Assembly: GCA_964643045.1 (NCBI GenBank)
Contig: CAZXSC010000001.1
Coordinates: 66,296 to 130,295 of the forward strand
DNA length: 64,000 nt
Source of the DNA: an uncultured Rhodospirillaceae bacterium
GTDB taxonomy: Bacteria; Pseudomonadota; Alphaproteobacteria; Rhodospirillales; UBA2165
Direction: 5' to 3'
Position numbers and translations under genes: made by a program. Numbering within the stretch: position 1 is the first letter of the stretch; every line of letters begins with the position of its first letter. The notes under the pieces are model-generated. The model did no database searches. It had not been told where the DNA came from and worked only from the letters and a program-made list of their open reading frames with translations. Of this stretch, positions 7,889 through 61,299 are shown piece by piece.

Positions 7889-7930
7889 TAATTTCTCTTC
7901 TGATAGTATTGTGAAGTCGGCAGAGTGTAT

Positions 7931-16230: not shown

Positions 16231-16242
16231 ATATTAATCAAT

Positions 16243-22856: not shown

Positions 22857-24155
22857 TTATTTTATAAGTTGTTCATGTCGATTTAGGAAGCTTGGTGCTA
22901 TTGGTGAACGTGCATCTGAATCTTCGAACTGGCCATCTTCTAAAGACAACCCATGGTTTTCGGGATAAAGTGAAAAGAAACGATGTTCTAATTCATCTCG
23001 TTCACAACCAACGATGCTTCCAGAATTCATTTTATTTAAGATATCTAATGCTGCTTCTGTCAATTCTAATCCTGTGTTGTAAACAATTCTAATTTTTTCC
23101 TTTCTAAAGTCATCTGTTCGACCGAACGTTAGAATACCGCGTTTAATCGCTTCGCTGTAAGTAATGATTCTGTTTGAATCAATATCAAGATACTTGACTG
23201 GTAAAGACATAAAATTTGGCCACGGTGCATATAAATCAGCAATATTTAGATTTGTGCGCAATCCACAGCCGCCTTGGGCGTGAGATAGATGGCCAATACC
23301 AGCTGAATCACAGATGAATAATGTACAGTATGAAGCAAGGAAAACATCTCCAAAATCGGTTCGGTGGTGTGTCGAATAATCAATTATTCGCGGATGTTGG
23401 GTTAAAAGAGGGCTTGCAACAATCGATCCCATTCGAACTAGCCAATAGCCCTGATCTGCTAAATTTTCAGCCATTTCTACATATGCGTCAAAATCAGGAT
23501 TACGATAGCTATGATAATCCCAGCCGTTCTCGTTACCCGTTACAAAAGACTTTTCCATATAAGCCTGGTCACGTACAGCGAAAGTGATAACAGGCGCTCC
23601 ACTTGGAATGCCCATTTGTTTGAGTAGGGTTTGGCCGTTCTTTTTCTGTTCCTCTGTTAAGCAAAAAGGCGCTGGAGTGTTGTTAAAAATATCTGGGGCA
23701 TAAACGATATGTGGCATAACATAAATGGCAGGATGTTTTGGTTTAATCCGAAATACCATTTTAATTAGATGTCTCAAAAAATCACTACAAACAACAGGTA
23801 TGTATTGGCGGGTCATTTCCACAATAGTTCTGTTAGATAGCGCTCCGTCGCATAGCAAAACATCATAAGCTGTCCCATAACCTTGATCTAAATTTTTTCG
23901 GCGGAGGTAGTAGTCCATCGCCCCTAGAAAATGACCGATCCGGCCATCCATTGAAATAATGATATTATCACCGCTGTTGGATTTATAACCACCAACAATC
24001 ATGAAACGGTATGGACGGTAAAACTTGAGAGCAAAAAGAATTAGAATACCAAAGTAACCCGAAAGGTTCACTTTAACTTGATAATAACAAAAACGAGCTA
24101 GTCGATGTAAAGCACTCGGTTTTATCGAAGAATTCATGAGTAATGCTTTAATCAA
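22857..24155 (-). CDS. Hypothetical 432-aa protein, possible non-canonical glycosyltransferase
   Basis: No canonical GT motif. The pattern ITFAVRDQAYM...WDYHSYRNPD...GYWLVRMGS...LFICDSAGIGHL recalls, from memory only, TIGR04372-type putative glycosyltransferases. Confidence 0.35.
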   Translation of the reverse strand: MIKALLMNSSIKPSALHRLARFCYYQVKVNLSGYFGILILFALKFYRPYRFMIVGGYKSNSGDNIIISMDGRIGHFLGAMDYYLRRKNLDQGYGTAYDVLLCDGALSNRTIVEMTRQYIPVVCSDFLRHLIKMVFRIKPKHPAIYVMPHIVYAPDIFNNTPAPFCLTEEQKKNGQTLLKQMGIPSGAPVITFAVRDQAYMEKSFVTGNENGWDYHSYRNPDFDAYVEMAENLADQGYWLVRMGSIVASPLLTQHPRIIDYSTHHRTDFGDVFLASYCTLFICDSAGIGHLSHAQGGCGLRTNLNIADLYAPWPNFMSLPVKYLDIDSNRIITYSEAIKRGILTFGRTDDFRKEKIRIVYNTGLELTEAALDILNKMNSGSIVGCERDELEHRFFSLYPENHGLSLEDGQFEDSDARSPIAPSFLNRHEQLIK

Positions 24156-25107
24156 AAAGAGAAGATTCGTAGAAATCGTTCAAGACAGGGAAATCGAGAC
24201 CAAATATTTTCTTGTATGCATCTTGAATATAATTTTTTTCCATACTGGGAAGGTAACTAATCGCCTTAAAAAGTAGAGCTACACGTTTATTTAAATCGCG
24301 AAATAAAGGTTGGTTTATAAATGTGGCATAGGAGACGCCCTCTTTTTCAACGGCACGAAGTAGAACTTCCAGAGCTACATCGGTCGCGTTGTTGAGCATT
24401 AAGAACAAAGCCATCCGGATAGTATTGGGAGCGACATCATTGCGTGTTCGATCAAATAGGCGTTTTGATGAAATAACCCATACACCATCTGTGGACATTA
24501 GTTTCCCAAATTTATCAGGAAGGGTAAATGGGCTTCTCGCGCTTCCCCGGCCATCATAATCCAAATTCAAGAGCTCAAAACCGTGTTCGTACATAAAATT
24601 GTTAATTTCGCCGAATGTTGGGCAATCTTTGAGAATTGGAGCAAAGGGTACCTCTGCACGAACACCCAAAACGGTATCCATTATTTTTGATTTTGCACCA
24701 TTAAGAACTTCAAGTTCAGCCCCTTCGGTGTCAATTTTTAGGAAATGGATTTCTTGGTTAGAAAAGAGGCTATCAATTGATCTTGCCTCTACGGTATATT
24801 CTCTAATATTTTCATGCTCGATCCGCATATAATCTTCGTCTGAGAGAAATGCTTCATTAATGTCATAGTGTGAATTTAATGCACGATGGTGTCGTTCCTT
24901 GAATGTAAGAGTTGTATCTTTACTGAATAGCGCTAAATTCTCGACAGTAATATTTTTTCTATCAATATACTTCTTTTTTAAGCGATTAACTTCTTTGTCG
25001 TCGGCTTCAAATAGAAAAAAATTGACCAAAGTTTCCATGGACTGCCAAGATGGATGTAAACCATAACGGGCTCCGGCATCAATTACATTACAATCAAGCT
25101 GAGGCAT
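24148..25107 (-). CDS. FkbM-family methyltransferase
   Basis: VIDAGARYGLHPSW and FLKIDTEGAELEVLNGA motifs; 319 aa. Confidence 0.8.
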   Translation of the reverse strand: MPQLDCNVIDAGARYGLHPSWQSMETLVNFFLFEADDKEVNRLKKKYIDRKNITVENLALFSKDTTLTFKERHHRALNSHYDINEAFLSDEDYMRIEHENIREYTVEARSIDSLFSNQEIHFLKIDTEGAELEVLNGAKSKIMDTVLGVRAEVPFAPILKDCPTFGEINNFMYEHGFELLNLDYDGRGSARSPFTLPDKFGKLMSTDGVWVISSKRLFDRTRNDVAPNTIRMALFLMLNNATDVALEVLLRAVEKEGVSYATFINQPLFRDLNKRVALLFKAISYLPSMEKNYIQDAYKKIFGLDFPVLNDFYESSLFD

Positions 25108-25152
25108 TGATTTTTAGCTCCCTTGTTTGCGGTTAATATTGGTAAAGCAGAG

Positions 25153-26028
25153 TTACTCACAAAAGGCGTCAAGTGCATCTTCAATGCCGGTTGGATTAAA
25201 ACCAAGCTTCCTAGCTGAAGAAAAATTAATTGTAAATGAAGATTTGTCAAGAAGTCGTGTTTTTACTTTAGAGCTTGATCCTGTTCGAGTTATAATTCGT
25301 TTGACAGCATTTTCGATTGTTATGAATCCCGATGAAGCTATGGGAAATACATGTGATCCTCGAAAACTTGAATTAGCGAGGTGAAGAATAAAGTTACTTA
25401 ACGCGTTTACATCTACAGCATTGTTAAACCTGTTTTCTGGATTGAATATTGTAATATCTTGATGTTTGAGTGCACGTTCGCGAACCTTCGCCAGCCAATG
25501 ATTTTTGGCACCAATACCAAGCACGCTTGGAAGACGAATAGCAAAGGAAGATAATACAGAAGCCTTCTCGTGCAACAACATTTCGCCGGCCAGCTTGCTA
25601 AGGCCGTAGGTGTTGGGGTTCACAATCGGCGTATTTGAATCAATAGGGTCGACGTTTATTTCACCATGAACAGAAATACTGGAGGTAAATATGAAGCGAT
25701 CTGCACCCGCTACCAACGCATAATCTAGAAGGTTTTGCATTCCATGTACGTTAGTTTTTATTATATCTGAAGCTGAGGATTCACTGGATGCAGCAGCAAT
25801 GTGGATAATTGTAGAAACACGTTTCGGAAGGTGTTTGAAAGAAACGGAATCACTCAAATCCAAATGTATGACGTTTACATTTTTTAACCTTCGCATAGGA
25901 TCGTCGTCGTCAATCGGTGAGCGGGTTGTTGCAACTAGGTTAGTACCAGATCGTGAAATTTGGTTTGATACATGCCTACCAATAAACGCTGTCGCGCCAA
26001 TTAACAAGATTTCGGCTTCAGGAATCAT
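25153..26028 (-). CDS. NAD-dependent epimerase/dehydratase family protein
   Basis: Start reassigned to ATG 26028 (MIPEAEILLIGATAFIGRHV). The track's longer form overlaps the upstream gene by 77 nt. YGLSK fits YxxxK. Confidence 0.75.
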   Translation of the reverse strand: MIPEAEILLIGATAFIGRHVSNQISRSGTNLVATTRSPIDDDDPMRRLKNVNVIHLDLSDSVSFKHLPKRVSTIIHIAAASSESSASDIIKTNVHGMQNLLDYALVAGADRFIFTSSISVHGEINVDPIDSNTPIVNPNTYGLSKLAGEMLLHEKASVLSSFAIRLPSVLGIGAKNHWLAKVRERALKHQDITIFNPENRFNNAVDVNALSNFILHLANSSFRGSHVFPIASSGFITIENAVKRIITRTGSSSKVKTRLLDKSSFTINFSSARKLGFNPTGIEDALDAFCE

Positions 26029-26056
26029 ATGGTGAATATTTGCATTTATAGTTAGA

Positions 26057-26977
26057 CTAGGGACGGTTAATTTCTTCGCTGATGCTTTCGATATCGAGCC
26101 CGTGCTTTGATAACAATTCCAAGTGATTTCCATAAAAATGAATAAATTCGTCCTTTAAGGAAAAACATTTTAAACTACAATTGGCCTTCATTTCCCATGC
26201 AATTTCTTTTACCCGTGAGCCTAGTCCACCATGAGGAACGTGCTCCTCAATTACTGCTATTTGATTGTGGGTCGCTAAGATTTTTTGTATGCCTTCTGTA
26301 TCAAGGGGCTTAATAGTATGGCAAGAGTATACAGATACAGATTTCCCGGTTGAAGAAATCTGTTTGGCAACACTGAGAGCCATATCAACTGTTATGCCAT
26401 ATGATAGTATTGCAACATTTGCCCCCTGTTGAAGACATCTTACTTTCCCAATTTTAAATGGATCGATAGCTTTACTAGTTAAATCTGGCTCGCCTGCTTT
26501 ACCTAGTCGCATGTAAACTGGACCCAGACTTTCCGTCGCACACCAAGTTGTTGCCAAGCGCATTTCGTCTGGGTCGCATGGTGCGAGGACGGTTAAATTG
26601 GGAATTGCGGAAGCGATTGCGATGTCTTCAATTGTATGGTGGGTACCACCAAGTGTGGAGTAAATAACCCCAGCCCCCATACCGATAACTGTTACCGGTA
26701 AATTTTGATAGCACAAATCATCACGGACCATTTCAAATGGACGATAAAGACTGAACGTGGCAATCGTATAACAAAACGGGCGCATCCCGTTTAAAGCCAT
26801 TCCAGCAGCAATTCCAATCATTGATTGCTCGGCAACACCACAATTAATAAATCGGTCTGGGAAATCCTCGCGAAAATTAATCATTGAGCCAGCTGGCGAT
26901 AGATCTGCCACTAAGGCGCAAATACGATCATCTTTTTTGCCAATCTCGTAAATAGCATCTGCAAATTTATTTCTCAC
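26057..26977 (-). CDS. Transketolase, C-terminal (pyrimidine-binding) subunit
   Basis: 306 aa with GVAEQSMIGIAAGMALNGMRPF. It is paired with the N-terminal subunit by a 4-nt overlap. Confidence 0.85.
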   Translation of the reverse strand: MRNKFADAIYEIGKKDDRICALVADLSPAGSMINFREDFPDRFINCGVAEQSMIGIAAGMALNGMRPFCYTIATFSLYRPFEMVRDDLCYQNLPVTVIGMGAGVIYSTLGGTHHTIEDIAIASAIPNLTVLAPCDPDEMRLATTWCATESLGPVYMRLGKAGEPDLTSKAIDPFKIGKVRCLQQGANVAILSYGITVDMALSVAKQISSTGKSVSVYSCHTIKPLDTEGIQKILATHNQIAVIEEHVPHGGLGSRVKEIAWEMKANCSLKCFSLKDEFIHFYGNHLELLSKHGLDIESISEEINRP

Positions 26978-27801
26978 GATGATATCTCCGTTAGCTCATT
27001 AATTGCTTGGGCGTATTCCTCAGGGTTTGGCGAACGGTAGTGCCAAATTGGCTGTCCTTCCATAAATGATACACCGCGACCCTTGACCGTGTTGCAAATT
27101 AGCATAAACGGCTTCCCGCCTGCCCGGTTTGTTATTGCGTCAAAAACAGCCTCAGAATCGTGACCATTAACTTCTGCAGTTTCCCAGCCAAAAGCGTTTA
27201 TTTTTTCGCTGATAGGATAGAATTTAGGGTGGGTTTCAATTGTGTCACCAAAGGATTGCATGCCATTATGATCTAAACAAATTATCAAATTATCTGTATT
27301 TAGGTTTGCCGCCATCATCAAGGCCTCCCAAGTTGATCCCTCTTGAAGTTCGCCATCGCTTATTATAACAAAAATTTTACCAGGACCCCTTTTAATATAT
27401 TGTTCGGTATATGCCATGCCAGTTGCCATTGCTGCGCCGTGCCCTAGGGATCCTGTGGAGGCTTCTATGCCCGGTGTCCCAAAATCTGGGTGACATCCAA
27501 GCCGTCCGTCTGGTTTGCAATATAAGTCTAAGTCTTTTTTGCTTAGGATACCCAGATCCTCTAATATTACGTATTGGACCATACAACCATGGCCCTTCGA
27601 CATGATAAATTTATCAATAGGGTCTTTATTGTCGCCGCGATTCATCAGACCGTTATAAATACAATCAGTCATTTCCATAGCAGAAAAAGCTGCGGCAGCG
27701 TGCAGTGCGCCAACTTGTTGTGAAATATCGAGGATTCGTCGTCGATAAGATTTGCAGCGACTTTGCGCTAGCATTTTGTCAAAAGAATTAGTTAAGTTCA
27801 T
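26974..27801 (-). CDS. Transketolase, N-terminal (TPP-binding) subunit
   Basis: 275 aa with MSKGHG and VIISDGELQEGSTWEA (TPP/metal motif). Confidence 0.85.
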   Translation of the reverse strand: MNLTNSFDKMLAQSRCKSYRRRILDISQQVGALHAAAAFSAMEMTDCIYNGLMNRGDNKDPIDKFIMSKGHGCMVQYVILEDLGILSKKDLDLYCKPDGRLGCHPDFGTPGIEASTGSLGHGAAMATGMAYTEQYIKRGPGKIFVIISDGELQEGSTWEALMMAANLNTDNLIICLDHNGMQSFGDTIETHPKFYPISEKINAFGWETAEVNGHDSEAVFDAITNRAGGKPFMLICNTVKGRGVSFMEGQPIWHYRSPNPEEYAQAINELTEISS

Positions 27802-27845
27802 TTTCTATCTCTTAATAATTATGGGTGTAGTTGGAGTTTTGTATT

Positions 27846-28496
27846 TCAAGAGATTATTGTCCAATACCAATCACCGGAGTATCCGGCTTCTTCAAAAAGT
27901 TTTATCCAACCATCGGGATAGTCGTGAAAATAGGCTGTTAATACCCAGCTTTCAAAAATTTTCTTCTGCTCAGATGTGAAATAGCTATCAACTTGGACAA
28001 ATCCTTTATTTGGCGCTAGGCGTTCTATTTCACCCAAAGCAACTTTACACAAGTCTCGCGGTAAATTATGCAAGCTATTGATGCAGAGCACAGCGCTGAA
28101 ACTGCCATCTGGGAACGGCAGATCTTCAGCACTACCTATTTGGAGTCGACCGACGACCTCTGGTTCACAATTCATTAGAGCATATTTGGAAACATCTACC
28201 CCATAGGCATCGATTCCGAGAGCCAAGAGATCTTTAACCAGAAACCCTTTTGCGCATCCAATATCGAGCACTTTATCTCCTGATTTTAACCTAAAATGAT
28301 CGACAATATCCTGAGCGACAGGTTGCCAACGCCCATCATAACTGTAACCGCCATATCCATATTCACGCGGACCATCGAAATACATTTTTCCATATTCCCG
28401 GGAAACGCGAATATGCTCTTCTGTTTTTTCGGTTTCGCGAGCTTTGACATTGCGTTTTCCTTTAGGAAGAGAACGCAGGAGTTCAACTTCAGCCAT
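27846..28496 (-). CDS. Class I SAM-dependent methyltransferase
   Basis: VLDIGCAKGFLVKDL motif I; 216 aa. Confidence 0.8.
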   Translation of the reverse strand: MAEVELLRSLPKGKRNVKARETEKTEEHIRVSREYGKMYFDGPREYGYGGYSYDGRWQPVAQDIVDHFRLKSGDKVLDIGCAKGFLVKDLLALGIDAYGVDVSKYALMNCEPEVVGRLQIGSAEDLPFPDGSFSAVLCINSLHNLPRDLCKVALGEIERLAPNKGFVQVDSYFTSEQKKIFESWVLTAYFHDYPDGWIKLFEEAGYSGDWYWTIIS

Positions 28497-29365
28497 CAGA
28501 TCGTATCCTTTAATCCATCAGAAAGGTTGGTATATTCAAATTTAGGAAAAGCTTTCCGTGTTGCTGTCGGATTGAACGGACGATAGCCGTTATGTGGCAT
28601 AGCGCCAAGTCTTAATGAGCTTTTTATGGTGACAGGCTTTTCAGAAAAATTCACCATCATCTCAGCAATTCTTTTGAATGAGGTAACGGTTCCGGTAGCA
28701 GCATTAAGGATGCCTTTGCTTTTATGCCAAGCGATGAGCCGGATGAGTTCTGCAACATCATCAACCAAAACGTGGTCACGCTGTTCTTCACCTTCTCCAA
28801 AGAGGATTATTTCCTTGCCGTCAGCAACAAGCCGACGGAAACGATTCGGACCATAGCCATTGTGTGGGTCATCGATACCGTAAATGAGTGTAGGGCGCAA
28901 AATTGTTAAGGTGAATTCGGTTGTTTCTTTTAACATAATTTCGCGAGTAAGATGCATGATACCGTGCATTGACGTGGGTTCGGCACTTGAAGTTTCGTTT
29001 AAGGGCTCCATACTATCGGCATAAACTGCATCAGAACTTACATATATAATGTGTGCAGGTTGAGTTCTAGAGATAGCTTCACACACGCCAGCCATCATTT
29101 GGACATTGCGAATAAGCATTGCAGCGTCTTTGCACGGTGCTTCAGCAGAAATTACAATCAGGGTATCCGTCGGCTTAACGAGATCTGTTAGTTTAGATCC
29201 GGCTTCTTCGTCTAATAATTCTATATCATTACGGCTCAGTGGGAGGACTTTCGTGCCTTCTGATTTAAAAGCTCTATGAGTTGCCCCGCCAACAAAACCT
29301 GCGGCTCCTAATATAACAACTCGGCTAGGTTGAGTTTGTTTAGAATTTTTATGTTCGAGCATCAA
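28496..29365 (-). CDS. NAD-dependent epimerase/dehydratase family protein
   Basis: VVILGAAGFVGGA Rossmann motif; 289 aa. Confidence 0.75.
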   Translation of the reverse strand: MMLEHKNSKQTQPSRVVILGAAGFVGGATHRAFKSEGTKVLPLSRNDIELLDEEAGSKLTDLVKPTDTLIVISAEAPCKDAAMLIRNVQMMAGVCEAISRTQPAHIIYVSSDAVYADSMEPLNETSSAEPTSMHGIMHLTREIMLKETTEFTLTILRPTLIYGIDDPHNGYGPNRFRRLVADGKEIILFGEGEEQRDHVLVDDVAELIRLIAWHKSKGILNAATGTVTSFKRIAEMMVNFSEKPVTIKSSLRLGAMPHNGYRPFNPTATRKAFPKFEYTNLSDGLKDTI

Positions 29366-29375
29366 TTACTTCCCT

Positions 29376-30659
29376 TTAAGAGAATGTTGAAAGTTCTGAA
29401 AGACCTAAAGTGAGATAGTCTAACCCGGCGGCTTTAACCATTTTACGATTCAAAATAGCATAGGGATCTAAAATAGTGCGGCCTTTCATATGAGAGGATA
29501 TTCTCTTCAAATTAAGCCCAGCGTATTCCGGCCAGGGGGTCATGATTACCAGGGCGTCTGCATTTTTAGTAGCGTTCTCGGCGCTGTTTGATGATGAAAC
29601 AGGAATTCCCGCTGCATCGGGTGAAACAATAGGGTCGTGGACGCAAACTTCAAATCCATTAAGATGGCTGAGCAAGGCAAGGGAGGGCGAATTCTTTGTG
29701 CTGTGCGTGTTTTCTTTATAGGCCAGCCCCAAGACGCAAATCCGTGCATTTGGATTTGTGCTTAAAACCTTTTTATTTAATATGCGCCAAGCCCATTCTT
29801 TCCGATGCGCACTATTTCTGATCCATGCAGCAACAATACTGCCGTCTGTTTGATGTATCTCGGACAATTGCATAATTGTGTTTAGATCTCTCTCTAAGTT
29901 ACCGCCTGCAATTCCAAGGCCGGGTTTTAAGTAACTGTACTTGCCAATCCGTCTGTCGAGCCTGAGAGAGGGTACAATTTCTGACCAATCAGCGTTAGCA
30001 TTTTCACAAATTTCAGCCATTGTATTGGCGACACCTATTGAAGCGACGAGACACATATTAATTGCTATTTTTGCTAGTTCCGCACTTTCATATCGCATCG
30101 GCATGATTGGACACTTAAACGTACCGAGAAATTCTAACAACCGCGCGTCTATTTTCTGATCCGGATGAGCACAGCCGACAATGAAACGTTCTGGTTTTGT
30201 GGCACGCTCTACAGCTTGGCCAAAAATAAGCGTCTCCACTTGATAATATAAATTCCCTGATCGGCGTGAAATCTGCCGCGTGAATCCAGGTGGCACTTGG
30301 CATAATATAGTTAATAAGGCATCCGGTTTCATTGCCGCTTCACTTAGAGAGATCATTTTCATTATAGTCGTGAGATCACTGTTACCTCGATCATCGGTCG
30401 GGACATCAGCTGATATATAAACTATGTCACACTGAGAAAGTGAATTCACGTCGTCGCTGAAGTTCAGGCGTGGTTTATTTTTCTTTACTAATTCATTAAG
30501 GCCGGGTTCGTTGATAGGAAGTAGCCCATTATTAATTGCAGCGACATATTTGGCGTCGTGATGATAGCCGATCACATCAAAACCATTTTCCGCAGCGGCA
30601 GCAGCTGAGTTTAATCCTAGGTGTGTCAAGCCAGCATAACCAATAATCAAATTAGGCAT
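29376..30659 (-). CDS. Nucleotide-sugar dehydrogenase (UDP-glucose/GDP-mannose dehydrogenase family)
   Basis: 427 aa with an N-terminal IGYAGLTHLGLNSAAAAAENGFDV Rossmann fold and LPINEPGLNELV. Confidence 0.75.
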   Translation of the reverse strand: MPNLIIGYAGLTHLGLNSAAAAAENGFDVIGYHHDAKYVAAINNGLLPINEPGLNELVKKNKPRLNFSDDVNSLSQCDIVYISADVPTDDRGNSDLTTIMKMISLSEAAMKPDALLTILCQVPPGFTRQISRRSGNLYYQVETLIFGQAVERATKPERFIVGCAHPDQKIDARLLEFLGTFKCPIMPMRYESAELAKIAINMCLVASIGVANTMAEICENANADWSEIVPSLRLDRRIGKYSYLKPGLGIAGGNLERDLNTIMQLSEIHQTDGSIVAAWIRNSAHRKEWAWRILNKKVLSTNPNARICVLGLAYKENTHSTKNSPSLALLSHLNGFEVCVHDPIVSPDAAGIPVSSSNSAENATKNADALVIMTPWPEYAGLNLKRISSHMKGRTILDPYAILNRKMVKAAGLDYLTLGLSELSTFS

Positions 30660-31590
30660 TGACAGTTACCCCGGCATTCATAGAAAGATCGGTCAATGTG
30701 CGATTAATCCAAATATCGTTCTCAAGGTTATGCCCACCCCTTTTTTTGCATAGATTAACAAAATGTTTGTATTCGATATTCCAGGTAGGATCTTCTTGTT
30801 CTAACCTATCAAATTTTTCTGGCGGGCGACCACTCGGTAAAATTCTTGTCCGGTGGATAAAAGTACTAGGCCCCCATTTGCAAAGTGAGTTAATGTGGGC
30901 ACTTCCTTTTTCAGCAAATACATCACAAGTAAAGTGATTGCGCCAAGACAACATAGTCATCTCTAGTTGGATGGCGGGTGTGTTATTACTTCCTACAACA
31001 ACATGGTCAAAAGATTTATTTTCATGGGTATAGGCGCCTTGAATTTTGAATTTTGGGTCAAAATTCTCGCCAAACCAAAATCGCAAGGTATCTAACAAGT
31101 GGCTCCCCAGATCTGCCAAAACGCCGGCTCCTGTATCCCGCCACTTGCTGTTCCTGACTAAACGGGCTGTGCCGTTGCCATAAAACATCCGCAGACTATA
31201 GATTTTCCCCAAAGCACCATTTTGAATTAAATTGCGCATTCTAACGAAATGAGGCTCGAACCGATGATTATAAGCGGTATAGCAGACCACATTGTTAGTT
31301 TTGGAAAGTTCGGCAAGGGTTTCAATATCGCTATCATTTTTTGCGAATAGTGGTTTCTCAACCAGAACATGTTTTTTGTTCGCCAACAAATAGCTTATCA
31401 AAGCGACTTTGGGATCATCTGGAATACACAAAATTGCGGCATCGAAGCTATCCAGCGGCACTTCCCGTATATCTTTATAATCGACACCTTCTGCCACAGG
31501 ATCAATCGTAGCGACTATATCATCCTGCGCAGCGCGTTGGCGTTTTGTACCTTGAACGCCCATACCTGCAACAACAACTTTTAACGCCAT
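30652..31590 (-). CDS. Gfo/Idh/MocA-family oxidoreductase
   Basis: LKVVVAGMGVQG Rossmann motif and HVLVEKPL (EKP motif); 312 aa. Confidence 0.8.
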   Translation of the reverse strand: MALKVVVAGMGVQGTKRQRAAQDDIVATIDPVAEGVDYKDIREVPLDSFDAAILCIPDDPKVALISYLLANKKHVLVEKPLFAKNDSDIETLAELSKTNNVVCYTAYNHRFEPHFVRMRNLIQNGALGKIYSLRMFYGNGTARLVRNSKWRDTGAGVLADLGSHLLDTLRFWFGENFDPKFKIQGAYTHENKSFDHVVVGSNNTPAIQLEMTMLSWRNHFTCDVFAEKGSAHINSLCKWGPSTFIHRTRILPSGRPPEKFDRLEQEDPTWNIEYKHFVNLCKKRGGHNLENDIWINRTLTDLSMNAGVTVNA

Positions 31591-33144
31591 TTAGTTCCCG
31601 TAATTTGCCATATTTGCAACTTTACCGATGCGGTTTAGAACGTCGGAGGGTTTGATTGGAATATTACCGTCAAACTCACATTCGCAAGCGGCAGCCATGG
31701 ATCCGAGGATGCTCGCTATAACTTCATTATTCGTCGCAATCATCGCTAATGTAGCATAAGCAAGCAATGCGTCTCCTGCCCCTATGGGATCAACAACATT
31801 TTCAGCAAAGCTATCAATGGAAAAATAACCCCCGACATTTGAATCATTAGTCGGCTTATTAACAAATAACCCTCTCTCACCGAGTTTGAGAAGTAGTAGT
31901 TTACATCCCGTCGCATTAGCAAGCTGACCTGATAAAGCTCCAACAGTAGAATCCTGATCGCCAAGTGCAAACCGGGCTTCACGTTCATTTGGCGTAATGA
32001 GGTCAAAACTCTTAAACTCGATGATATTACCCCATCGGCTAGCAACCTGGCTATCGGCAACGCGATAGGCGTTATTTGGGATAGCTTCTGTCAATAGTGG
32101 AACGGTGTGCTGATTAAATATACCATGACGGAAATCGGCAAAAACAACAGCATCAGTAGAAGCGTCGCGCACGCTATTCAATAAACGCTCCAAAATGGAT
32201 TCTGAAATGGAACGATTATCAAGCGTGTCAACTTTCAGCAGGCGATAACCATTAGCTATGAAAGCATTCTTATTAGTTGTGGGCCGTGTTTCATCTATAA
32301 TTGTGTTGCAGTGAATGCCCGCATCTTTCAATCCAGCGATGACAAACTCACTTAAGGCGTCATTACCGAGTACGCTGGAGAACGTTACATCGGCACCCGC
32401 AGCCCTTAAATGTTGGGCAACAATTCCTGCACCACCTATATAGTTGTCTTGGCCTTGATATTGAACGCTGAATGTTGGGGTTTTTGTTTGCCCACCAATG
32501 AGATTTGTTCGGGTGTAGCTATCGACAATTGTGTCGCCTACTACGTGGACCTTAAATCCAATCATTTTATCCAAGGCCGAACGTAAATCAGAGAAATTGA
32601 GTTTATGGGTATGCATAACAGCTAGGAGTTTTTCCATCTGGATGTCGGGGGCTGACATTTTGATAAATTCTGAAGATGAATAGACTACGTCACCTGGCGT
32701 AAAAATCATCTCGCCGCCAAAGCCTTCAACTACGTTAGCTTCCTCTTGGGTTGCTGCTGGTAAACCGTCGTCGCTATATTCAAAGCCTTTGGCAAAATAA
32801 TCAGGATTTAAAAACTTAAGCAATTCTAGCGGTTTTGCATTTTCGTCGATAATGACGTAATCCACCATTTCGAACGCGGCTAAATTTAAAGCTCGCAGAC
32901 GTTGAGGAATATGAGGCCGATAAACACCCTTTTTAATATGAAGATCTGCGGTGATACTAGCAATAAGAATATCAGCTTTAGTTTTTGCGTACGCTAAATG
33001 CCGAACGTGACCCGGATGGACAACGTCGAAAACACCGTGACACAGGATAACTTTCTTTTCGCGGGGAAATGGGCCTATAAGATCTGCAAGCTCATGCCGA
33101 GTTTTTAGCTTGAATTCGTATTCTTTAAAGAATTCTGCGGTCAT
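31591..33144 (-). CDS. Bifunctional heptose-phosphate nucleotidyltransferase/PfkB sugar kinase (HldE/RfaE-like, domain order reversed)
   Basis: The N-terminal VILCHGVFDVVHPGHVRHLAYAK (HxGH cytidylyltransferase-like) aligns with HldE domain II. The C-terminal VHVVGDTIVDSY...DPIGAGDALLAY (PfkB) aligns with HldE domain I. Confidence 0.75.
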   Translation of the reverse strand: MTAEFFKEYEFKLKTRHELADLIGPFPREKKVILCHGVFDVVHPGHVRHLAYAKTKADILIASITADLHIKKGVYRPHIPQRLRALNLAAFEMVDYVIIDENAKPLELLKFLNPDYFAKGFEYSDDGLPAATQEEANVVEGFGGEMIFTPGDVVYSSSEFIKMSAPDIQMEKLLAVMHTHKLNFSDLRSALDKMIGFKVHVVGDTIVDSYTRTNLIGGQTKTPTFSVQYQGQDNYIGGAGIVAQHLRAAGADVTFSSVLGNDALSEFVIAGLKDAGIHCNTIIDETRPTTNKNAFIANGYRLLKVDTLDNRSISESILERLLNSVRDASTDAVVFADFRHGIFNQHTVPLLTEAIPNNAYRVADSQVASRWGNIIEFKSFDLITPNEREARFALGDQDSTVGALSGQLANATGCKLLLLKLGERGLFVNKPTNDSNVGGYFSIDSFAENVVDPIGAGDALLAYATLAMIATNNEVIASILGSMAAACECEFDGNIPIKPSDVLNRIGKVANMANYGN

Positions 33145-34145
33145 TGTTTTGTCTTTGTATTCATATATTTGAACCAGGGTTTAGTTGCTTCCTTAATACT
33201 ATTTGGATCCCAAAGTGGAGCATCTTTCCAAGTATCAATTTCTACCAGCATTTTTTTAACACCCTCTTCAAACGAAATTTCAGGCTTCCATTCGAGTTCA
33301 GTCAAGGCCTTTGTGATGTCCGCCCAAGTACAATCTGGTTCACCGGGTCGTTTGGGCACATAGACAACATCGCCCTCTAGCAATTCCACAAGTGTATTTA
33401 CTGTTTGCGGATTGCCAGCGCCGATATTGTAAATCTCACCTGACCGATTTGTCATTGCCGCTGCGTAAAATGCCTTAGCAACATCCGTTACGTATATAAA
33501 GTCACGATCTTGCATGCCATCGCCAACGACAGTAAAAGGTTTTCCGGCCAATTTTTGTTTGAAGAAAACGCCGAAAACGGCACCGTATGCGCCAGTTGTT
33601 CGGACCCGCGTACCATAGGCATTGAAAATCCGAACGGCGTTGGCTGGCAAGCCGTAGACATGTTGCCAATGAAAAACAGCTTGTTCACCTTGATATTTGC
33701 TTAATGCATAAGGATATTGTGGTTGGATCGGTTGATCTTCCCTGGTTGGGACATCGGCTAAGCCGTAGCATGACGATGACGCAGCATAGATAAACTTCTG
33801 GACGCCTGCTACCCGAGCACATTCCAATACGCGCACTGTTCCCTGAACATTAACTTCCATATAATCGAGGGGATGTTCGATCGAAGGAACGATGTCACCA
33901 ATACCGGCAAAGTGAAACACGAACCGAGCGTCGTCGAAAATCGATCCTTCTGGATCCAGTCCCCGGATATCGCAGCACTCAAGCGTTACGTTCTCGTTAT
34001 TGGTATGATTAGCGAGGTTTTTTTCATGTCCACCAGTCATGTTATCAATGATGCGAACTCGAAAACCGTTATCAACCAAAAGGTCAACCATGTGGCTACC
34101 GATAAACCCGGCGCCACCAGTAACCATGGCTATAGGCAAACCCAT
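33141..34145 (-). CDS. NAD-dependent nucleotide-sugar epimerase/dehydratase
   Basis: MVTGGAGFIGSHMVDLL and YALSKYQGE (YxxxK); 334 aa. Confidence 0.85.
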   Translation of the reverse strand: MGLPIAMVTGGAGFIGSHMVDLLVDNGFRVRIIDNMTGGHEKNLANHTNNENVTLECCDIRGLDPEGSIFDDARFVFHFAGIGDIVPSIEHPLDYMEVNVQGTVRVLECARVAGVQKFIYAASSSCYGLADVPTREDQPIQPQYPYALSKYQGEQAVFHWQHVYGLPANAVRIFNAYGTRVRTTGAYGAVFGVFFKQKLAGKPFTVVGDGMQDRDFIYVTDVAKAFYAAAMTNRSGEIYNIGAGNPQTVNTLVELLEGDVVYVPKRPGEPDCTWADITKALTELEWKPEISFEEGVKKMLVEIDTWKDAPLWDPNSIKEATKPWFKYMNTKTKQ

Positions 34146-35159
34146 TTAAGCAGCGCTGATCTTTTTCATTGTGCGGACATTGAAGTAATTATCATTATCG
34201 AAGCTATCAGGTAATTTGCCGTCACGGAATGCCTTGCATAATCCGCGAATAGCATCTTCTACACTATATTGAGGCTTGAAGCCAAGAACTTCAGTAACCT
34301 TGTCTGAGTTGATATGATATGAACGCAAATCATCTGACGATGTTACTTCTATATTAATTTCGTCTTTATCCGGAAATTCTTCGGCCACGACCCGTTTGAC
34401 CGTTTTGGCAATTTTCATGATACTCATGTTCTCGTAGCCACAATTGAAAATCTCATTAGCGATTTTTTCATCTGGTGCTTCAAGCAGAACTTTACAAAGA
34501 TCAGCATAATCCTGAATATGGAGGTTTGGGCGCAACTGACTGCCGCCAAAGACAGTGATATTGCCTTTATTGACGGCAAGATTGGTCAAAATATTGACCG
34601 ATACATCAAGCCTTTGACGCGGCCCGTAGCCACATACGGTTGCCGGCCGATAAACCACACCGACAAAGTTTTCATCAGTGTGATTGAACAGGATCGGCTC
34701 ACACGCCCCTTTGTATTTGTTGTAAAGCGTCAGCGGTACCAATGGGTGGTCTTCTTTAACATTAGGTTCTTCACTAATACCGTAAACTGAACTTGATGAC
34801 GCATAAATAAAGCGTTTAACACCGGCTTTCTTTGCAGCGATAACAATTGGTTCAAAAGCATTCATGTTTACGGTCGTCGAAAGGTTTTCGTCTAATTCAA
34901 AGCTGGCATCATTTGAAATACAAGCCAGATGGAGAACTGCGTCTACACCCGCCATAAGTGGTTCTAGCTTCCCAATATCTCTGATATCGCCTTGAATAAC
35001 CGTCAAATTTGGATTGTCCAAGGGTAAAAAATTAGATCCATAATACTGGATGTCATAAACGGTTACGTTGTAACCCATGTCCAACATTTGTGGCACTAAC
35101 ACGCTACCACAGTATCCTGCTCCGCCGGTCACAAGAACATGATTAAATTTAGGTGTCAT
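34146..35159 (-). CDS. NAD-dependent nucleotide-sugar epimerase/dehydratase
   Basis: VLVTGGAGYCGSVLVPQML and YNKYK (YxxxK); 337 aa. Confidence 0.8.
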   Translation of the reverse strand: MTPKFNHVLVTGGAGYCGSVLVPQMLDMGYNVTVYDIQYYGSNFLPLDNPNLTVIQGDIRDIGKLEPLMAGVDAVLHLACISNDASFELDENLSTTVNMNAFEPIVIAAKKAGVKRFIYASSSSVYGISEEPNVKEDHPLVPLTLYNKYKGACEPILFNHTDENFVGVVYRPATVCGYGPRQRLDVSVNILTNLAVNKGNITVFGGSQLRPNLHIQDYADLCKVLLEAPDEKIANEIFNCGYENMSIMKIAKTVKRVVAEEFPDKDEINIEVTSSDDLRSYHINSDKVTEVLGFKPQYSVEDAIRGLCKAFRDGKLPDSFDNDNYFNVRTMKKISAA

Positions 35160-35183
35160 AATTTTGATAACTCCAATTTGGAT

Positions 35184-35921
35184 TTACTCGCTTTTTTTGG
35201 TTATGTTTATTGTGTATCCGGCTGCTTTTGCATCGTCATAGAACATTCGCACAGTTTCTAGGCTAAACTCAGCGAGGTCTTTTTCAAGTGATTTCAGTTT
35301 GCCCAGAACATCTGCCGTTGCCGTTATAATATGGCAGCCAACTTCATTGGCTTGAATAATATTTAAAAGCTCGCGTGGGCTAGCCCATAACAGCTCAGCT
35401 TTCGGTAAAAATTTTAAGACTTCCACACACTCGCGCATAATTGGCATAGGGTCCAATCCGGTATCTGCGATCCTGCCCGCAAAAACAGAAACAATGGCCG
35501 ATGTTCCAGGTGATAAATTTTCAGCGACAGCTTTAACTTGCTCAAGTGTCATGATAGCGGTGATGTTTAACTGAACGCCGTTTGTCGAAAGTTCTTTTAT
35601 AATTGGGCCTGTAAATTCGCCTTGGGTATTTGTTACGGGGATCTTCACATTCACGTTTGAACCCCAGGAAGCGATTACTTTAGCTTGGGCCAACATATCA
35701 GCTAAGTCATCAGCAAAAACTTCAAAACTAACGGGGCGATCGGGTATGGCAGCTAGAACCTGTTTGGCAAAATTTTCATAATTCGTGATTCCAACTTTAT
35801 TCATCAGCGTTGGGTTGGTAGTAAAACCCTTTATTTTAGGGTTTTTATAAAGGGTTACCATGCTATCTAGGTCTGCCCCATCGGCAAATAATTTTACTTT
35901 TAATTGGTCTACACTTGGCAT
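35184..35921 (-). CDS. Transaldolase-family protein (short TalC/FSA type)
   Basis: KLFADGADLDSMVTLYKNPKIKGFTTNPTLM matches the short transaldolase N-terminus; 245 aa. Confidence 0.8.
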   Translation of the reverse strand: MPSVDQLKVKLFADGADLDSMVTLYKNPKIKGFTTNPTLMNKVGITNYENFAKQVLAAIPDRPVSFEVFADDLADMLAQAKVIASWGSNVNVKIPVTNTQGEFTGPIIKELSTNGVQLNITAIMTLEQVKAVAENLSPGTSAIVSVFAGRIADTGLDPMPIMRECVEVLKFLPKAELLWASPRELLNIIQANEVGCHIITATADVLGKLKSLEKDLAEFSLETVRMFYDDAKAAGYTINITKKSE

Positions 35922-36482
35922 CTATTTGTCCATGTTACGTGAAAGGATCGTATCTACTGCGTCTATCAAGGAAGAAACTATAACATCCGGCTGATCGACT
36001 ATTTTTTCAGCATAATTATTGTTGATAAAAATTGTGGTGCAACCTGCCGCGTTACCGGCTGAAATATCGCTCCATCTGTCGCCGATCATATAACTGTTGG
36101 AAACGTCAGCGTGTAAGTCGCCTGCAGCCTCTAAAATCATACCGGGCTTCGGTTTTCTGCAATAGCAGCCATCTGTTTTAGCATGATAGCATACCTTAAC
36201 AATATCGATCGGAAGCTTTGAAAGTAATTTGGTATTCATCTGATCAATTATTTTTTTCTCAACTGTACCGTTTCCGACATCAGGTTGGTTAGTTACAACG
36301 GCCAAGGCAAACCCATTTTTTTTTAAAGCCGAAAGCGCTTCAAGGGTGCCGGAAAGGATATTGAAATCTTCAAATTTTTTTGGTGCATACGGCTTACCAT
36401 CTATGACCTCAGTATGATTCAAAACACCGTCGCGGTCGAGGAAAATAGTCGGTCGGACTGGATTGTCGACCTTGGCTACCAT
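35922..36482 (-). CDS. gmhB: D-glycero-D-manno-heptose 1,7-bisphosphate phosphatase (HAD-IIIA)
   Basis: IFLDRDGVLN, VVTNQPDVG and GDRWSDISAGNAAG motifs; 186 aa. It lies next to gmhA. Confidence 0.85.
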   Translation of the reverse strand: MVAKVDNPVRPTIFLDRDGVLNHTEVIDGKPYAPKKFEDFNILSGTLEALSALKKNGFALAVVTNQPDVGNGTVEKKIIDQMNTKLLSKLPIDIVKVCYHAKTDGCYCRKPKPGMILEAAGDLHADVSNSYMIGDRWSDISAGNAAGCTTIFINNNYAEKIVDQPDVIVSSLIDAVDTILSRNMDK

Positions 36483-37060
36483 TTAGTACCTTTTATTTGA
36501 AGTTTTGGGTGCGACACCAAGCAGTGCCACACAACGGCCTGAAAAGCTTCGGTGTGTGGTGTGATATGATTTGCCGCAACCGTCGGGACGACGATCACTT
36601 CATCGCCTATCATTTTTGTATGTCCCGTTTCTCGTCCGACAACGCCAAATATTTTCATTTTGCGTGATTTAGCTTCATCTAAGGCTTTTACAATATTCAC
36701 GCTCACATTGTGTTTTGCGTCACCGCCGCCAACGGAGAATACCAATACCGCATCATTGGCCGTGGCCTGGCTTCCTTGAAGCCAGGCTGAAAATACTGTG
36801 TCCCATCCTTCGTCATTGGTCCGCGCGGTCAGCTCTGAAACATTGTCAACTGGCGAATAAGTTTCGATGCCACATAGTTTCCGAAAATCGTTTACAGCAT
36901 GCGAAGAATTTGCGGCGCTCCCACCAACCCCAATTATAAATAATCTGCCACCGGACTCACGTAGAGCAAGAAGTTCATTCGCCAATCTTTCAATAGCAAT
37001 GTGATCAATAGATTTTGCAATATCTGATACCTGTTTAAAATATATTTCAGTATGTGTCAT
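36476..37060 (-). CDS. gmhA: Phosphoheptose (sedoheptulose-7-phosphate) isomerase, SIS domain
   Basis: RLFIIGVGGSAANSSHAVNDFRK; 194 aa. Confidence 0.85.
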   Translation of the reverse strand: MTHTEIYFKQVSDIAKSIDHIAIERLANELLALRESGGRLFIIGVGGSAANSSHAVNDFRKLCGIETYSPVDNVSELTARTNDEGWDTVFSAWLQGSQATANDAVLVFSVGGGDAKHNVSVNIVKALDEAKSRKMKIFGVVGRETGHTKMIGDEVIVVPTVAANHITPHTEAFQAVVWHCLVSHPKLQIKGTKW

Positions 37061-38880: not shown

Positions 38881-40116
38881 TTATCGATAGGTAGAGTGAT
38901 CGGATGGGCGTTCGTAGATGTTGGCCAATAGTTCCCAAGATGCTTCGCCTTTAGATGTCGGAGAACGTAAAAAAGAATCCTCATATTTTTTATAAAGGGT
39001 TTCATCAACATGCGGTATTTTAAATTCCGAAGAAACACTTGATACATGGTCGATGTTTAGTCTTTTTTGACCAAACCAACTTGAACCACAAATTATATCT
39101 TTTTTAAACCATTTTGAATTAGGTAATGCTTCTATCTCATTGCTGGTTAGAAAAATTATTGGTTTCCGGTAAAGCGAAACATAGGAAAGGGCGGTGCTGA
39201 AGTGAGATAAGGTGAGTATGGATTGTTTTATTAATTCTGCTGTTTTATCTGTTATAATTTTCCGCCCCCCAAAAATATTTTTGTTCTTTTGGTTTGTATA
39301 CGTAGTTTTCGGATGCGCAGCAATTATCACTTCGCAGCTTAAGTCTTTTTCTATTTTGTCAAATACTTTGCAAAGTGCAGGGTAATATGCCGCCTCTGAA
39401 ACTGGGGGAATGGCATTTAAAATTTCATAATCGGGATGATTTGTTAAACCGGAGTCTATAAATACAGCAAATGCCGTATTAGCGAAATTAGTTGGCTTGT
39501 TGGTTTTAAATTGAATGAGTTCAACATCTGAGCTTGCTACATCGAGTATTTTGGCACGCCATTTGTGTGGTGCCGCGTTTACGTTATGTGGATTAACGAA
39601 GCCTGCTCTCATCCAAACGTAAGGAGGCGGTAACCTCCAATATGTCATACCTATTTTGATAATAAAGAAAAGACGATGAAAAATCCTCTCCGAGAGTGCT
39701 TTGACGCAATTAATTTGATAGTAAACATACTCAAATAGATTAATGGAACCAGAAAAGTTTGGTAAAAAGCTATTTGGCACATTACCGAGCGAGGAGTGTA
39801 CGTAGCGCAACTTTCTTTCTTTTATAGCTTCATAAATCCAAACATTTGATGTAACTGGAACAAATAAGCGAATAATATCCTGGTATGAAAGACCGTCTAA
39901 TAGTTTGCCTACCTCATCAAAGTTCTTGGGTGTTTTTGCTTCGGGATGGCTTTTAAAATCACCCCGACTCAGTTTATCTGTATCGTATTGGAGCAATTTG
40001 CTAAATTGGATAATCGTTATTTGATAGCCAAGTTTTTTCATTTCCTCACACCCGAATCGCCTCCAGTCACGTTCGGTGAAAATGTGTGGAAAAATTAAAA
40101 CATAATGTTTGGGCAT
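38881..40116 (-). CDS. Hypothetical 411-aa protein; possible nonulosonate/Kdo-type (HP-motif) glycosyltransferase
   Basis: No canonical GT motif. VFIDSGLTNHPDY and EVIIAAHPKTTY followed by SHFSTALSYVSLYRKPIIFL recall the HP motif region of bacterial sialyltransferase and capsule-synthesis families. Confidence 0.35.
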   Translation of the reverse strand: MPKHYVLIFPHIFTERDWRRFGCEEMKKLGYQITIIQFSKLLQYDTDKLSRGDFKSHPEAKTPKNFDEVGKLLDGLSYQDIIRLFVPVTSNVWIYEAIKERKLRYVHSSLGNVPNSFLPNFSGSINLFEYVYYQINCVKALSERIFHRLFFIIKIGMTYWRLPPPYVWMRAGFVNPHNVNAAPHKWRAKILDVASSDVELIQFKTNKPTNFANTAFAVFIDSGLTNHPDYEILNAIPPVSEAAYYPALCKVFDKIEKDLSCEVIIAAHPKTTYTNQKNKNIFGGRKIITDKTAELIKQSILTLSHFSTALSYVSLYRKPIIFLTSNEIEALPNSKWFKKDIICGSSWFGQKRLNIDHVSSVSSEFKIPHVDETLYKKYEDSFLRSPTSKGEASWELLANIYERPSDHSTYR

Positions 40117-42181: not shown

Positions 42182-42193
42182 GATAGGATGTCA

Positions 42194-43405: not shown

Positions 43406-43443
43406 AGGTGAAATTATTGTGTATCTTAAAAAGTCGAATGTGG

Positions 43444-44391: not shown

Positions 44392-44393
44392 CC

Positions 44394-61297: not shown

Positions 61298-61299
61298 TC

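Follow-up and report, generated by a model that had tools for sequence, protein, structure and literature searches.

Genes of the locus

The stretch of DNA analysed here, referred to as the window, comprises 64,000 nucleotides from an uncultured Rhodospirillaceae bacterium (GenBank assembly GCA_964643045.1, contig CAZXSC010000001.1, positions 66,296 to 130,295 of the forward strand), and is devoted over its entire length to glycan biosynthesis. It belongs to a metagenome scaffold of 206 kb (ENA ERZ23498633). We describe in it fourteen tightly packed open reading frames (ORFs) at 24148-37060, all on the minus strand, and in particular the twelve at 26057-37060, hereafter the cassette, in which adjacent genes share 1-8 nt, directly abut or leave gaps of 10-44 nt. 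These genes are part of a longer one-directional run that extends from ~11 to 49 kb, and the GC content over 26-36 kb (0.42-0.445) is slightly above that of most of the window.

An earlier note on this DNA had read the span 24148-37060 as a modified-heptose module equipped with its own transaldolase and split transketolase, located next to phosphoramidate genes. We assigned families with Pfam and NCBIfam profiles run on the window proteins, using the NCBIfam equivalog cut-offs as threshold. All the gene families that the note had named were confirmed, at correct coordinates; of the five short-chain dehydrogenase/reductase (SDR) genes that it counted in the span, we found four (starting at 34146, 33141, 28496 and 25153), and additional SDR genes lie outside the span, at 41180, 43444 and 44846. 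In order of transcription, the genes are as follows, ThDP standing for thiamine diphosphate, UGDH for UDP-glucose dehydrogenase and SAM for S-adenosylmethionine:

36476-37060 (-): SIS-domain sugar-phosphate isomerase, a distant GmhA relative (PF13580, 32 bits)
35922-36482 (-): HAD-IIIA phosphatase, GmhB-like (TIGR01656, 127 bits, cut-off 84; TIGR01662, 86 bits, cut-off 45)
35184-35921 (-): Tal, short transaldolase of the TIGR02134 type (357 bits, cut-off 282)
34146-35159 (-): SDR2, epimerase-type extended SDR (PF01370, 135 bits)
33141-34145 (-): SDR3, GalE/WbpP-like, 4-epimerase type (nearest solved structure 6DNT, 169 bits)
31591-33144 (-): NT-kinase, fusion of an N-terminal nucleotidyltransferase (PF01467, residues 35-126) and a C-terminal PfkB kinase (PF00294, residues 199-489)
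30652-31590 (-): Gfo, Gfo/Idh/MocA oxidoreductase (PF22725, PF01408, PF02894)
29376-30659 (-): UGDH-like protein, UDP-glucose/GDP-mannose-dehydrogenase fold without the catalytic Cys (TIGR03026, 217 bits, cut-off 190)
28496-29365 (-): SDR4, short extended SDR with an atypical active site (PF01370, 92 bits)
27846-28496 (-): class I SAM methyltransferase (PF08241, 56 bits)
26974-27801 (-): TktN, ThDP-binding (N) subunit of a split transketolase (PF00456, Transketolase_N, 113 bits)
26057-26977 (-): TktC, pyrimidine-binding/C-terminal subunit of the split transketolase (PF02779, Transket_pyr; PF02780, Transketolase_C)
25153-26133 (-): SDR5, locus-specific, candidate ketoreductase (PF01370, 94 bits); its start is at ~26028 according to the public gene call (locus L001)
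24148-25107 (-): FkbM-family methyltransferase, locus-specific (PF05050, 61 bits; TIGR01444, 71 bits)

The cassette is collinear in 160 loci

We collected 80 genome loci using the NT-kinase as query, and then mapped the window proteins onto each of them. A further 80 metagenome loci, used as a replication set, came from a scan with a diverse alignment that returned close cassette relatives alone. Relatives of the NT-kinase were found at 66-85% identity across many phyla. The twelve-gene cassette is collinear in the 160 loci, at ~45-75% amino-acid identity (per-gene medians of 46-68% in the 80 genome loci), with the recurrent order SIS, GmhB-like, Tal, SDR2, SDR3, NT-kinase, Gfo, UGDH-like, SDR4, methyltransferase, TktN, TktC. 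Carriers include Rhodospirillales, Azospirillum, Labrys, Ferrovibrio, Legionellales with Coxiella-like metagenome-assembled genomes (MAGs), and Pelagibacteraceae (SAR11), and, in other phyla, Bacteroidia, Simkania/Chlamydiales, Acidobacteriota and Methylomirabilota.

The genes that flank the cassette in the window do not follow it. The FkbM methyltransferase has no orthologue in the other loci, and neither this gene nor the carbamoyltransferase nor the four O-methyl-phosphoramidate (MeOPN) genes of the window have counterparts in the 80 genome loci. SDR5 gave weak matches alone (34-38%), in three loci (L082, and L008 and L009, where they follow TktC), and the glycosyltransferase gene gave weak matches (<40% identity) in 7 of the 80. 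Since the former genes do not travel along and the matches of SDR5 and the glycosyltransferase are weak, we delimit the conserved unit to 26057-37060, which leaves the FkbM gene outside it. Overall, these data indicate that the genes are co-located far above chance and that the cassette is horizontally mobile and found in many distant bacteria; that it is a real unit we regard as nearly certain. The transaldolase and the transketolase belong to this recurrent order in both sets of loci, as genuine parts of the module and not as neighbours by chance.

The search of plasmids returned only two NT-kinase relatives, both at ~30% identity and without link to a known glycan. L083, on an Azospirillum oryzae plasmid (NZ_CP054615, 204338-229738), contains a reversed NT-PfkB fusion, a SIS gene and an E1 pair (see below); L084, on Solidesulfovibrio carbinolicus pDCAR1 (72541-98001), contains the same reversed fusion and a SIS gene, and its island also encodes a split transketolase, on the other strand. 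These distant cassettes have neither transaldolase nor Gfo nor UGDH-like gene, and their type represents a wider family of heptose-type pathways. Both combine the fusion and the SIS gene with radical-SAM enzymes. L083 additionally contains two DegT aminotransferases, with a carbamoyltransferase nearby, and L084 sits among pseudaminic-acid genes.

At the head of the operon in the window lies a regulator pair:

47795-48978 (-): helix-turn-helix (MarR-like) and NusG-like (RfaH/UpxY-type) regulators (PF13412, PF02357)

The same pair is located upstream of the cassette in L027, L030, L031, L065, L069, L070, L078 and L081, and directly upstream of it in the metagenome locus L086, making at least nine other loci in all; it looks like a dedicated antitermination/regulation pair moving with the system.

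The heptose-type entry enzymes score below their equivalog cut-offs

The three heptose labels proposed in the note (gmhA, gmhB and a kinase/nucleotidyltransferase providing the NDP-heptose core, NDP standing for nucleoside diphosphate) hold at the level of the family only, all three scoring under their equivalog cut-offs. The SIS protein scores 53 bits against the GmhA equivalog TIGR00441 (cut-off 209) and 43 bits against NF001628 (cut-off 265), and its nearest solved structure, Burkholderia pseudomallei GmhA, matches at 41 bits. Its catalytic/metal His is retained, with Asp as the acidic residue where GmhA has Glu, and its phosphate loop is changed from STSG to VGGG with an insertion of six residues. 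The gene, conserved in 39 of the 80 genome loci, is overlapped by 7 nt by that of the HAD phosphatase, which satisfies the HAD-IIIA and histidinol-phosphatase-like models and reaches 125 bits of the 178 set for the GmhB equivalog NF006506. The NT-kinase has its domains in the reverse order relative to HldE, with PF01467 first and PF00294 second, and reaches 129 bits against the HldE equivalog NF008454 (cut-off 521); its nearest solved structures are HldC (5X9Q, 66 bits) and HldA (4E84, 52 bits).

The transaldolase is an equivalog-level member of its own family, TIGR02134. Its Schiff-base Lys (in VKIP) has a counterpart in the Thermoplasma acidophilum transaldolase 3S0C, as have its D, E, N/T, S-F-GR and S-x-R residues. 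It is present in all 23 genome loci and all 9 metagenome loci that have both SIS and GmhB-like genes, and also in seven genome loci that have neither, so that it is the most faithfully kept of the three entry genes SIS, GmhB-like and Tal.

A clade of UGDH homologues without catalytic cysteine

The UGDH-like protein has the three-domain fold of its family (PF03721, PF00984, PF03720), and the TIGR03026 score given above is at the level of the subfamily. In the alignment with the UDP-glucose dehydrogenase 4A7P, the motif GGSCFPKD faces GGNLERD (residues 252-258), such that Asn254 stands in place of the catalytic Cys. This Asn is found in 118 cassette orthologues (65 of 65 from genomes and 53 of 53 from metagenomes); among 150 library representatives of clusters at 50% identity, 134 have Asn at this position and 11 have His. 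At other active-site positions of UGDH, the aligned Lys, Asn and Asp are present, and the N-terminal nucleotide-binding loop reads G-x-[ST]-H-L-G instead of GxGxxG. A paralogue of the same family located in the window at 62407-63741 (-) retains both the GLGYVG loop and the GGHC catalytic Cys. In UGDH the catalytic Cys forms the thioester intermediate of the four-electron oxidation; because it is absent here, the thioester-dependent second oxidation should be beyond the UGDH-like protein.

The adjacent Gfo has conserved GxGxxG and EKP motifs. Its gene overlaps that of the UGDH-like protein by 8 nt, and in a natural fusion of 719 amino acids (P0326) an N-terminal Gfo/Idh/MocA domain precedes the UGDH-like part, which argues that the two proteins probably act together. 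In another protein, P0327 (722 amino acids), the UGDH-like domain is fused to a classical short-chain dehydrogenase. Both fusions are Rosetta-stone hints that the UGDH-like protein always works with a redox partner.

Epimerases, an atypical SDR and a methyltransferase

SDR3 is the best-conserved gene of the cassette (median identity 68.5%), and SDR2 has a median of 66% across loci. SDR2 has the motifs SSSVYG and YxxxK and no dehydratase Asp/Glu; SDR3 has SSSCYG and YxxxK, and its nearest solved structures after 6DNT are 4ZRM, WbgU and WbpP. From the SSS-x-YG and YxxxK motifs and from the nearest solved structures, which are 4-epimerases, both are predicted to be of the epimerase type. SDR4 has a normal GxxGxxG loop, and its YxxxK is replaced by [H/Y]134-x3-H138, with His138 invariant in 64 orthologues; it may therefore not be a conventional hydride-transfer SDR. 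For the class I methyltransferase, 57 of the 80 genome loci have an orthologue with at least 40% identity (median 62%).

The split transketolase has a remodelled substrate channel and is exchanged with an E1 pair

The nearest solved structures to the split transketolase are those of the two-subunit enzyme of Carboxydothermus hydrogenoformans (TktN versus 6YAK, 157 bits; TktC versus 6YAJ, 174 bits), with which it shares all the catalytic and ThDP-binding residues. In E. coli numbering, the equivalents of H26, H66, H100, D155, N185, H261 and H473 are invariant in the 33 genome orthologues. In the E. coli enzyme, R358, S385, H461 and R520 are established to hold the substrate phosphate and D469 to bind the C2-hydroxyl of the acceptor. 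TktC retains the equivalent of R358. At the other four positions the ordinary split transketolase 6YAJ keeps Ser, His, Asp and Arg, whereas S385A, H461G, D469L and R520K are fixed in the 33 genome and 14 metagenome orthologues, except for a single Arg at R520. The enzyme has in consequence the ThDP motif and catalytic His of a pentose-phosphate transketolase and not its set of substrate-binding residues. The split transketolase of L084 is nearer to the canonical enzyme at the equivalents of H461, D469 and R520.

Loci without the transketolase carry, in the same cluster, an E1-alpha (PF00676) and E1-beta-like pair, as do L003 and L033, frequently placed immediately downstream of the methyltransferase or of an additional RmlB-like SDR. 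The two types of ThDP enzyme are distributed as follows:

80 genome loci: transketolase 36, E1 20, both 0, neither 24
40 genome loci with at least 9 kb on each side: transketolase 20, E1 15, both 0, neither 5
80 metagenome loci: transketolase 15, E1 13, both 1 (L086), neither 51

Over the 160 loci this amounts to 51 transketolases and 33 E1 pairs, with one locus having both. Exactly one two-subunit ThDP enzyme, of one type or the other, is present in 35 of the 40 full genome loci and in 13 of the 16 full metagenome loci. The mutual exclusion in the 40 full genome loci is significant by a Fisher test that takes as independent loci which are not (p = 8e-7). On the NT-kinase similarity tree, loci of both types are intermixed, also inside the Legionellales and inside the clade of the window itself, which indicates that the exchange occurred repeatedly.

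Among the 160 loci, L086 (11879-17014 of metagenome MDTB01242457) alone combines the special TktN with an E1 alpha/beta pair. They sit downstream of a close relative of the cassette of the window, and the corresponding sugar may have two different C2 additions.

Common to both types is that a two-carbon unit bound to ThDP is passed to a carbonyl, and an E1-type enzyme is unable to make sedoheptulose-7-phosphate. The principal proposal of the note, that the transketolase supplies this phosphate, is not supported, given the remodelling of the channel in 47 of 47 orthologues and the substitution by an E1 pair in sister cassettes. On the same two grounds, its secondary idea, in which two carbons are transferred to a nucleotide sugar, is the better one, and from these sequence features we judge it quite probable that the transketolase tailors the sugar rather than supplying a precursor. 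We also considered that both ThDP types might supply a precursor, namely a ketose or 1-deoxyketose phosphate from ribose-5-phosphate, and rejected it because the SIS enzyme cannot isomerise a 1-deoxyketose to an aldose.

Comparison with octose, heptose and branched-sugar pathways

The GDP-octose of the lincomycin/celesticetin pathway is made by a transaldolase (lmbR), an isomerase (lmbN), a phosphatase (lmbK), a kinase (lmbP), a nucleotidyltransferase (lmbO), an epimerase (lmbM), a dehydrogenase (lmbL) and an oxidoreductase (lmbZ), the C8 sugar arising from ribose-5-phosphate and a C3 unit taken from fructose-6-phosphate or sedoheptulose-7-phosphate (PMC4351081; PMC7014725; PMC12945683). All eight functions, matched by published family labels and not by sequence, are found in the operon of the cassette, likewise as a compact set, with the kinase and the nucleotidyltransferase as analogues and not homologues. 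LmbL is said to have the UGDH fold and LmbZ to be a Gfo/Idh/MocA protein, the two reportedly carrying out jointly a 6,8-dehydration to a 6-keto-8-deoxy sugar; the adjacent and sometimes fused Gfo and UGDH-like proteins mirror this arrangement. In contrast to the lincosamide pathway, which also counts LmbS among its members, the cassette has no core aminotransferase and adds a thiamine enzyme and a methyltransferase, and it is found in polysaccharide loci, among Gram-negative and other environmental bacteria, rather than in an actinomycete antibiotic cluster.

With the ADP-L-glycero-beta-D-manno-heptose pathway (GmhA, HldE or HldA/HldC, GmhB, HldD), the cassette shares four entry folds, namely the SIS isomerase, the PfkB kinase, the cytidylyltransferase-fold nucleotidyltransferase and the HAD-IIIA phosphatase. 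It differs from it by the missed equivalog cut-offs, the reversed fusion, the insertion in the SIS loop, the presence of a transaldolase in the unit and the seven further tailoring genes that follow. On this comparison, the gene set appears to match the lincomycin octose pathway at least as well as the heptose one.

ThDP enzymes are known among genes that modify NDP-sugars: YerE and ErwE are single-chain enzymes adding carbon branches to nucleotide keto-sugars, and AviB1/AviB2 and Pau11/Pau12 are proposed two-subunit E1-like enzymes adding C2 branches to keto sugars (PMC4753412; PMC9306805). As in these systems, where a ketoreductase follows, the ThDP enzyme is here an integral and conserved member of an NDP-sugar tailoring set, and the sister cassettes fill its slot with an E1 alpha/beta pair of the AviB1/AviB2 kind. 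The enzyme of the window differs in being a split transketolase, expected to donate glycolaldehyde (hydroxyacetyl) instead of acetyl, and in its predicted substrate, a C7 or C8 sugar instead of a 3,6-dideoxyhexose.

Bradyrhizose, a C10 bicyclic sugar, has a candidate operon of 11 genes in photosynthetic Bradyrhizobium, including a dTDP-glucose-4,6-dehydratase-like gene (PMC4743980). A link with the cassette, tested indirectly, found no support: none of the best 120 matches (76% or more) of SDR3 from a cassette-bearing Bradyrhizobium MAG is named as a photosynthetic Bradyrhizobium.

A proposed pathway and its alternatives

Our analysis supports the general proposal of the note, a dedicated module that takes a ketose phosphate of the pentose-phosphate pathway to an NDP-activated, heavily tailored higher sugar. 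For the pathway itself, every chemical step is an inference of ours, and so are the length of the carbon chain, the carbon that accepts the new unit and the identity of the nucleotide. The transaldolase would most likely form octulose-8-phosphate from fructose-6-phosphate (or sedoheptulose-7-phosphate) and ribose-5-phosphate, in the manner of LmbR, or alternatively sedoheptulose-7-phosphate. The SIS enzyme would isomerise this ketose phosphate to the aldose phosphate, the PfkB domain would phosphorylate C1, the HAD phosphatase would take off the distal phosphate and the N-terminal nucleotidyltransferase domain would form the NDP-sugar, to be epimerised by SDR2 and SDR3. Gfo and the UGDH-like protein would then act on the exocyclic tail, either through a 6,8-dehydration like that of LmbZ/LmbL, leading to a 6-keto-8-deoxy sugar, or, as a minimum, through a two-electron oxidation to a carbonyl. 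Onto this carbonyl the split transketolase would transfer a glycolaldehyde (ketol) unit, and the E1 alpha/beta pair of the sister cassettes an acetyl or hydroxyethyl unit from pyruvate, before reduction by SDR4 or SDR5 and methylation by the class I methyltransferase. That the cassette makes an NDP-octose (or NDP-heptose) and then adds two carbons by thiamine chemistry is our leading proposal, held tentatively and a little short of an even chance. The more detailed version, in which the split transketolase adds glycolaldehyde to a keto- or aldehydo-octose (or heptose) from Gfo and the UGDH-like protein to give an undescribed branched or extended C9-C10 surface sugar, with an acetyl-type product in the E1 variant, is possible and somewhat more speculative. 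As to octose versus heptose, we lean very slightly towards octose.

Several observations weigh against this proposal or against its octose form. The isomerase, the kinase and the nucleotidyltransferase have GmhA, HldA and HldC as nearest solved relatives, and the PfkB/HldC-type folds of the last two differ from those of LmbP and LmbO, reportedly GHMP-type and NTP_transferase-type, respectively. Seven genome loci retain the transaldolase without SIS/GmhB-like genes, where housekeeping GmhA and GmhB may serve, which favours a heptose. In many sister cassettes the ThDP genes are immediately preceded by an RmlB-like 4,6-dehydratase (gene X), which fits an acceptor with its keto group at C4 better than one with it at C6. 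In five of the 40 full genome loci, no ThDP enzyme was found over 10 kb and, finally, we know of no transketolase that acts on a nucleotide sugar.

Some of these points would be met if the same cassette, its ThDP enzyme still tailoring the product, made a heptose. The transaldolase would then boost or guarantee the supply of sedoheptulose-7-phosphate, Gfo and the UGDH-like protein would oxidise C6/C7 of an NDP-D-glycero-beta-D-manno-type heptose, a C7 aldehyde being one possible result, and a C9 sugar would arise when the transketolase extends or branches it. The best NCBIfam matches of the entry enzymes are indeed heptose families, a UGDH without Cys is expected to stop at the aldehyde, which is a natural acceptor for a transketolase, and L083 and L084 associate the fusion and SIS with a ThDP enzyme and no transaldolase. 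However, sedoheptulose-7-phosphate is present in any cell that has a transketolase, so that the faithful retention of the transaldolase is hard to explain by a topping-up role only, and to our knowledge described heptose clusters carry no transaldolase. The four "heptose" enzymes, moreover, score far under the equivalog cut-offs, with a remodelled phosphate loop in the SIS protein, and L083 and L084 lack Gfo and the UGDH-like gene together with the transaldolase, which fits three genes that belong together as in the lmb pathway. We consider the heptose version unlikely on balance, though a serious competitor. Much less probable is the original view that transaldolase and transketolase are both private suppliers of sedoheptulose-7-phosphate, the heptose being tailored by the SDRs, Gfo, the UGDH homologue and the methyltransferases only: both enzymes belong to pentose-phosphate families, both genes are within the operon and the transaldolase retains all canonical catalytic and phosphate-binding residues, but of its five substrate-binding residues the transketolase no longer has S385, H461 and D469, with Lys for R520 in all orthologues but one, 33 loci have the E1 enzyme instead after repeated exchange within clades, and L086 has both types.

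The thiamine enzymes might finally cleave a C-C bond rather than form one, or produce a small donor, acyl or glycolyl, from which a substituent would be attached. The transketolase reaction runs in both directions and E1 enzymes act as decarboxylases of 2-oxo acids, so that the former type could remove a terminal ketol and the latter decarboxylate a terminal 2-oxo acid. Against this, the shared upstream pathway would yield two product chain lengths, the known E1-like pairs of sugar clusters and YerE/ErwE add carbon units, and no acyltransferase travels with the cassette in the loci examined. We hold this explanation to be very improbable, and retain the thiamine-dependent two-carbon addition to an NDP-octose (or NDP-heptose) as working model.

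Phosphoramidate genes and the rest of the island

The MeOPN-type genes of the window lie at 15700-20683 and encode a PRK05849-type kinase (785 bits), a GATase, a nucleotidyltransferase and an APS-kinase-like protein. The note had seen in the tailored heptose a plausible acceptor for the phosphoramidate. Such genes are found beside the cassette in none of the 80 genome loci tested, so that their adjacency here is uninformative on this point, and the link does not stand on co-occurrence. The capsule locus of Campylobacter jejuni NCTC 11168 likewise has heptose-type entry genes a few kb from glutamine-kinase-type MeOPN genes, but in our loci the adjacency is peculiar to the window, and C. jejuni uses a GDP-alpha-heptose route with HddA/HddC, different from the cassette.

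The other features of the island are the following:

17639-20683 (-): MeOPN-type glutamine-kinase homologue of 1014 amino acids, matching PRK05849 from residue 212, with an N-terminal extension of ~210 residues without family assignment
11151-12773 (-): member of the sulfatase/phosphotransferase family, encoded immediately downstream of the MeOPN genes and a candidate for transferring a phospho-substituent
2496-8989 (-): nonulosonic-acid set, with a PseB/Polysacc_synt_2-type dehydratase (2496-3494), a DegT aminotransferase (3569-4732), a NeuB-type synthase (7931-8989), a HAD hydrolase and a methyltransferase
40150-45925 (-): NDP-sugar sub-cluster, with (by Pfam) CBS and nucleotidyltransferase domains, SDRs, DegT and a dTDP-sugar-isomerase-like gene
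14394-15149 (-): formyltransferase-domain gene
59381-61303 (-): asparagine-synthase-type amidotransferase, possibly acting in the formation of a uronamide

Given the nonulosonic-acid set, the island encodes at least three unusual sugars. The sub-cluster at 40150-45925 and the formyltransferase-domain gene are suggestive of a 3-amino/formamido-dideoxy sugar. Four large ORFs of 385-635 amino acids (38881-40116, 9098-11005, 53811-54968 on the minus strand and 56166-58046 on the plus strand) have no Pfam match, nor has the first of them any NCBIfam match, the other three having been scanned against Pfam alone; they could be polymerases, ligases or novel glycosyltransferases.

Significance

A limited literature search found no published description of the cassette or of a heptose/transketolase glycan cluster. 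Its parts are of known kinds, from the entry pathways to NDP-heptoses and NDP-octoses to sugar branching by ThDP enzymes, and their combination appears to be new, the newest aspects being apparently the specialised transketolase, the Cys-less UGDH clade and the switch between transketolase and E1. A practical consequence is that automatic labels such as gmhA, hldE, ugd and tkt are misleading for the genes of the cassette.

The probable two-carbon addition suggests that the cassette makes a bacterial surface sugar that is widespread and so far undescribed. If our reading is correct, its transketolase would be the first one recruited to nucleotide-sugar tailoring, and the UGDH-like proteins would form a large unrecognised clade of this fold without the catalytic Cys, of at least 150 clusters at 50% identity. 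Lincomycin-style higher-sugar chemistry would then be a widespread surface-glycan route and not an actinomycete curiosity, and the interchange of transketolase and E1 would constitute a simple genetic switch for antigenic variation, between hydroxyacetyl and acetyl. The hypothesis is directly testable in cultured carriers, of which Labrys miyagiensis NBRC 101365, Azospirillum sp. TSO22-1 and Pacificispira spongiicola KN72 have the transketolase type and Ferrovibrio xuzhouensis KCTC 42182 the E1 type; if it is true, a C9-C10 sugar would be present on the surfaces of many environmental and host-associated bacteria, among them Legionellales, Coxiella-like organisms, Chlamydiales, SAR11, Rhodospirillales and Bacteroidia.

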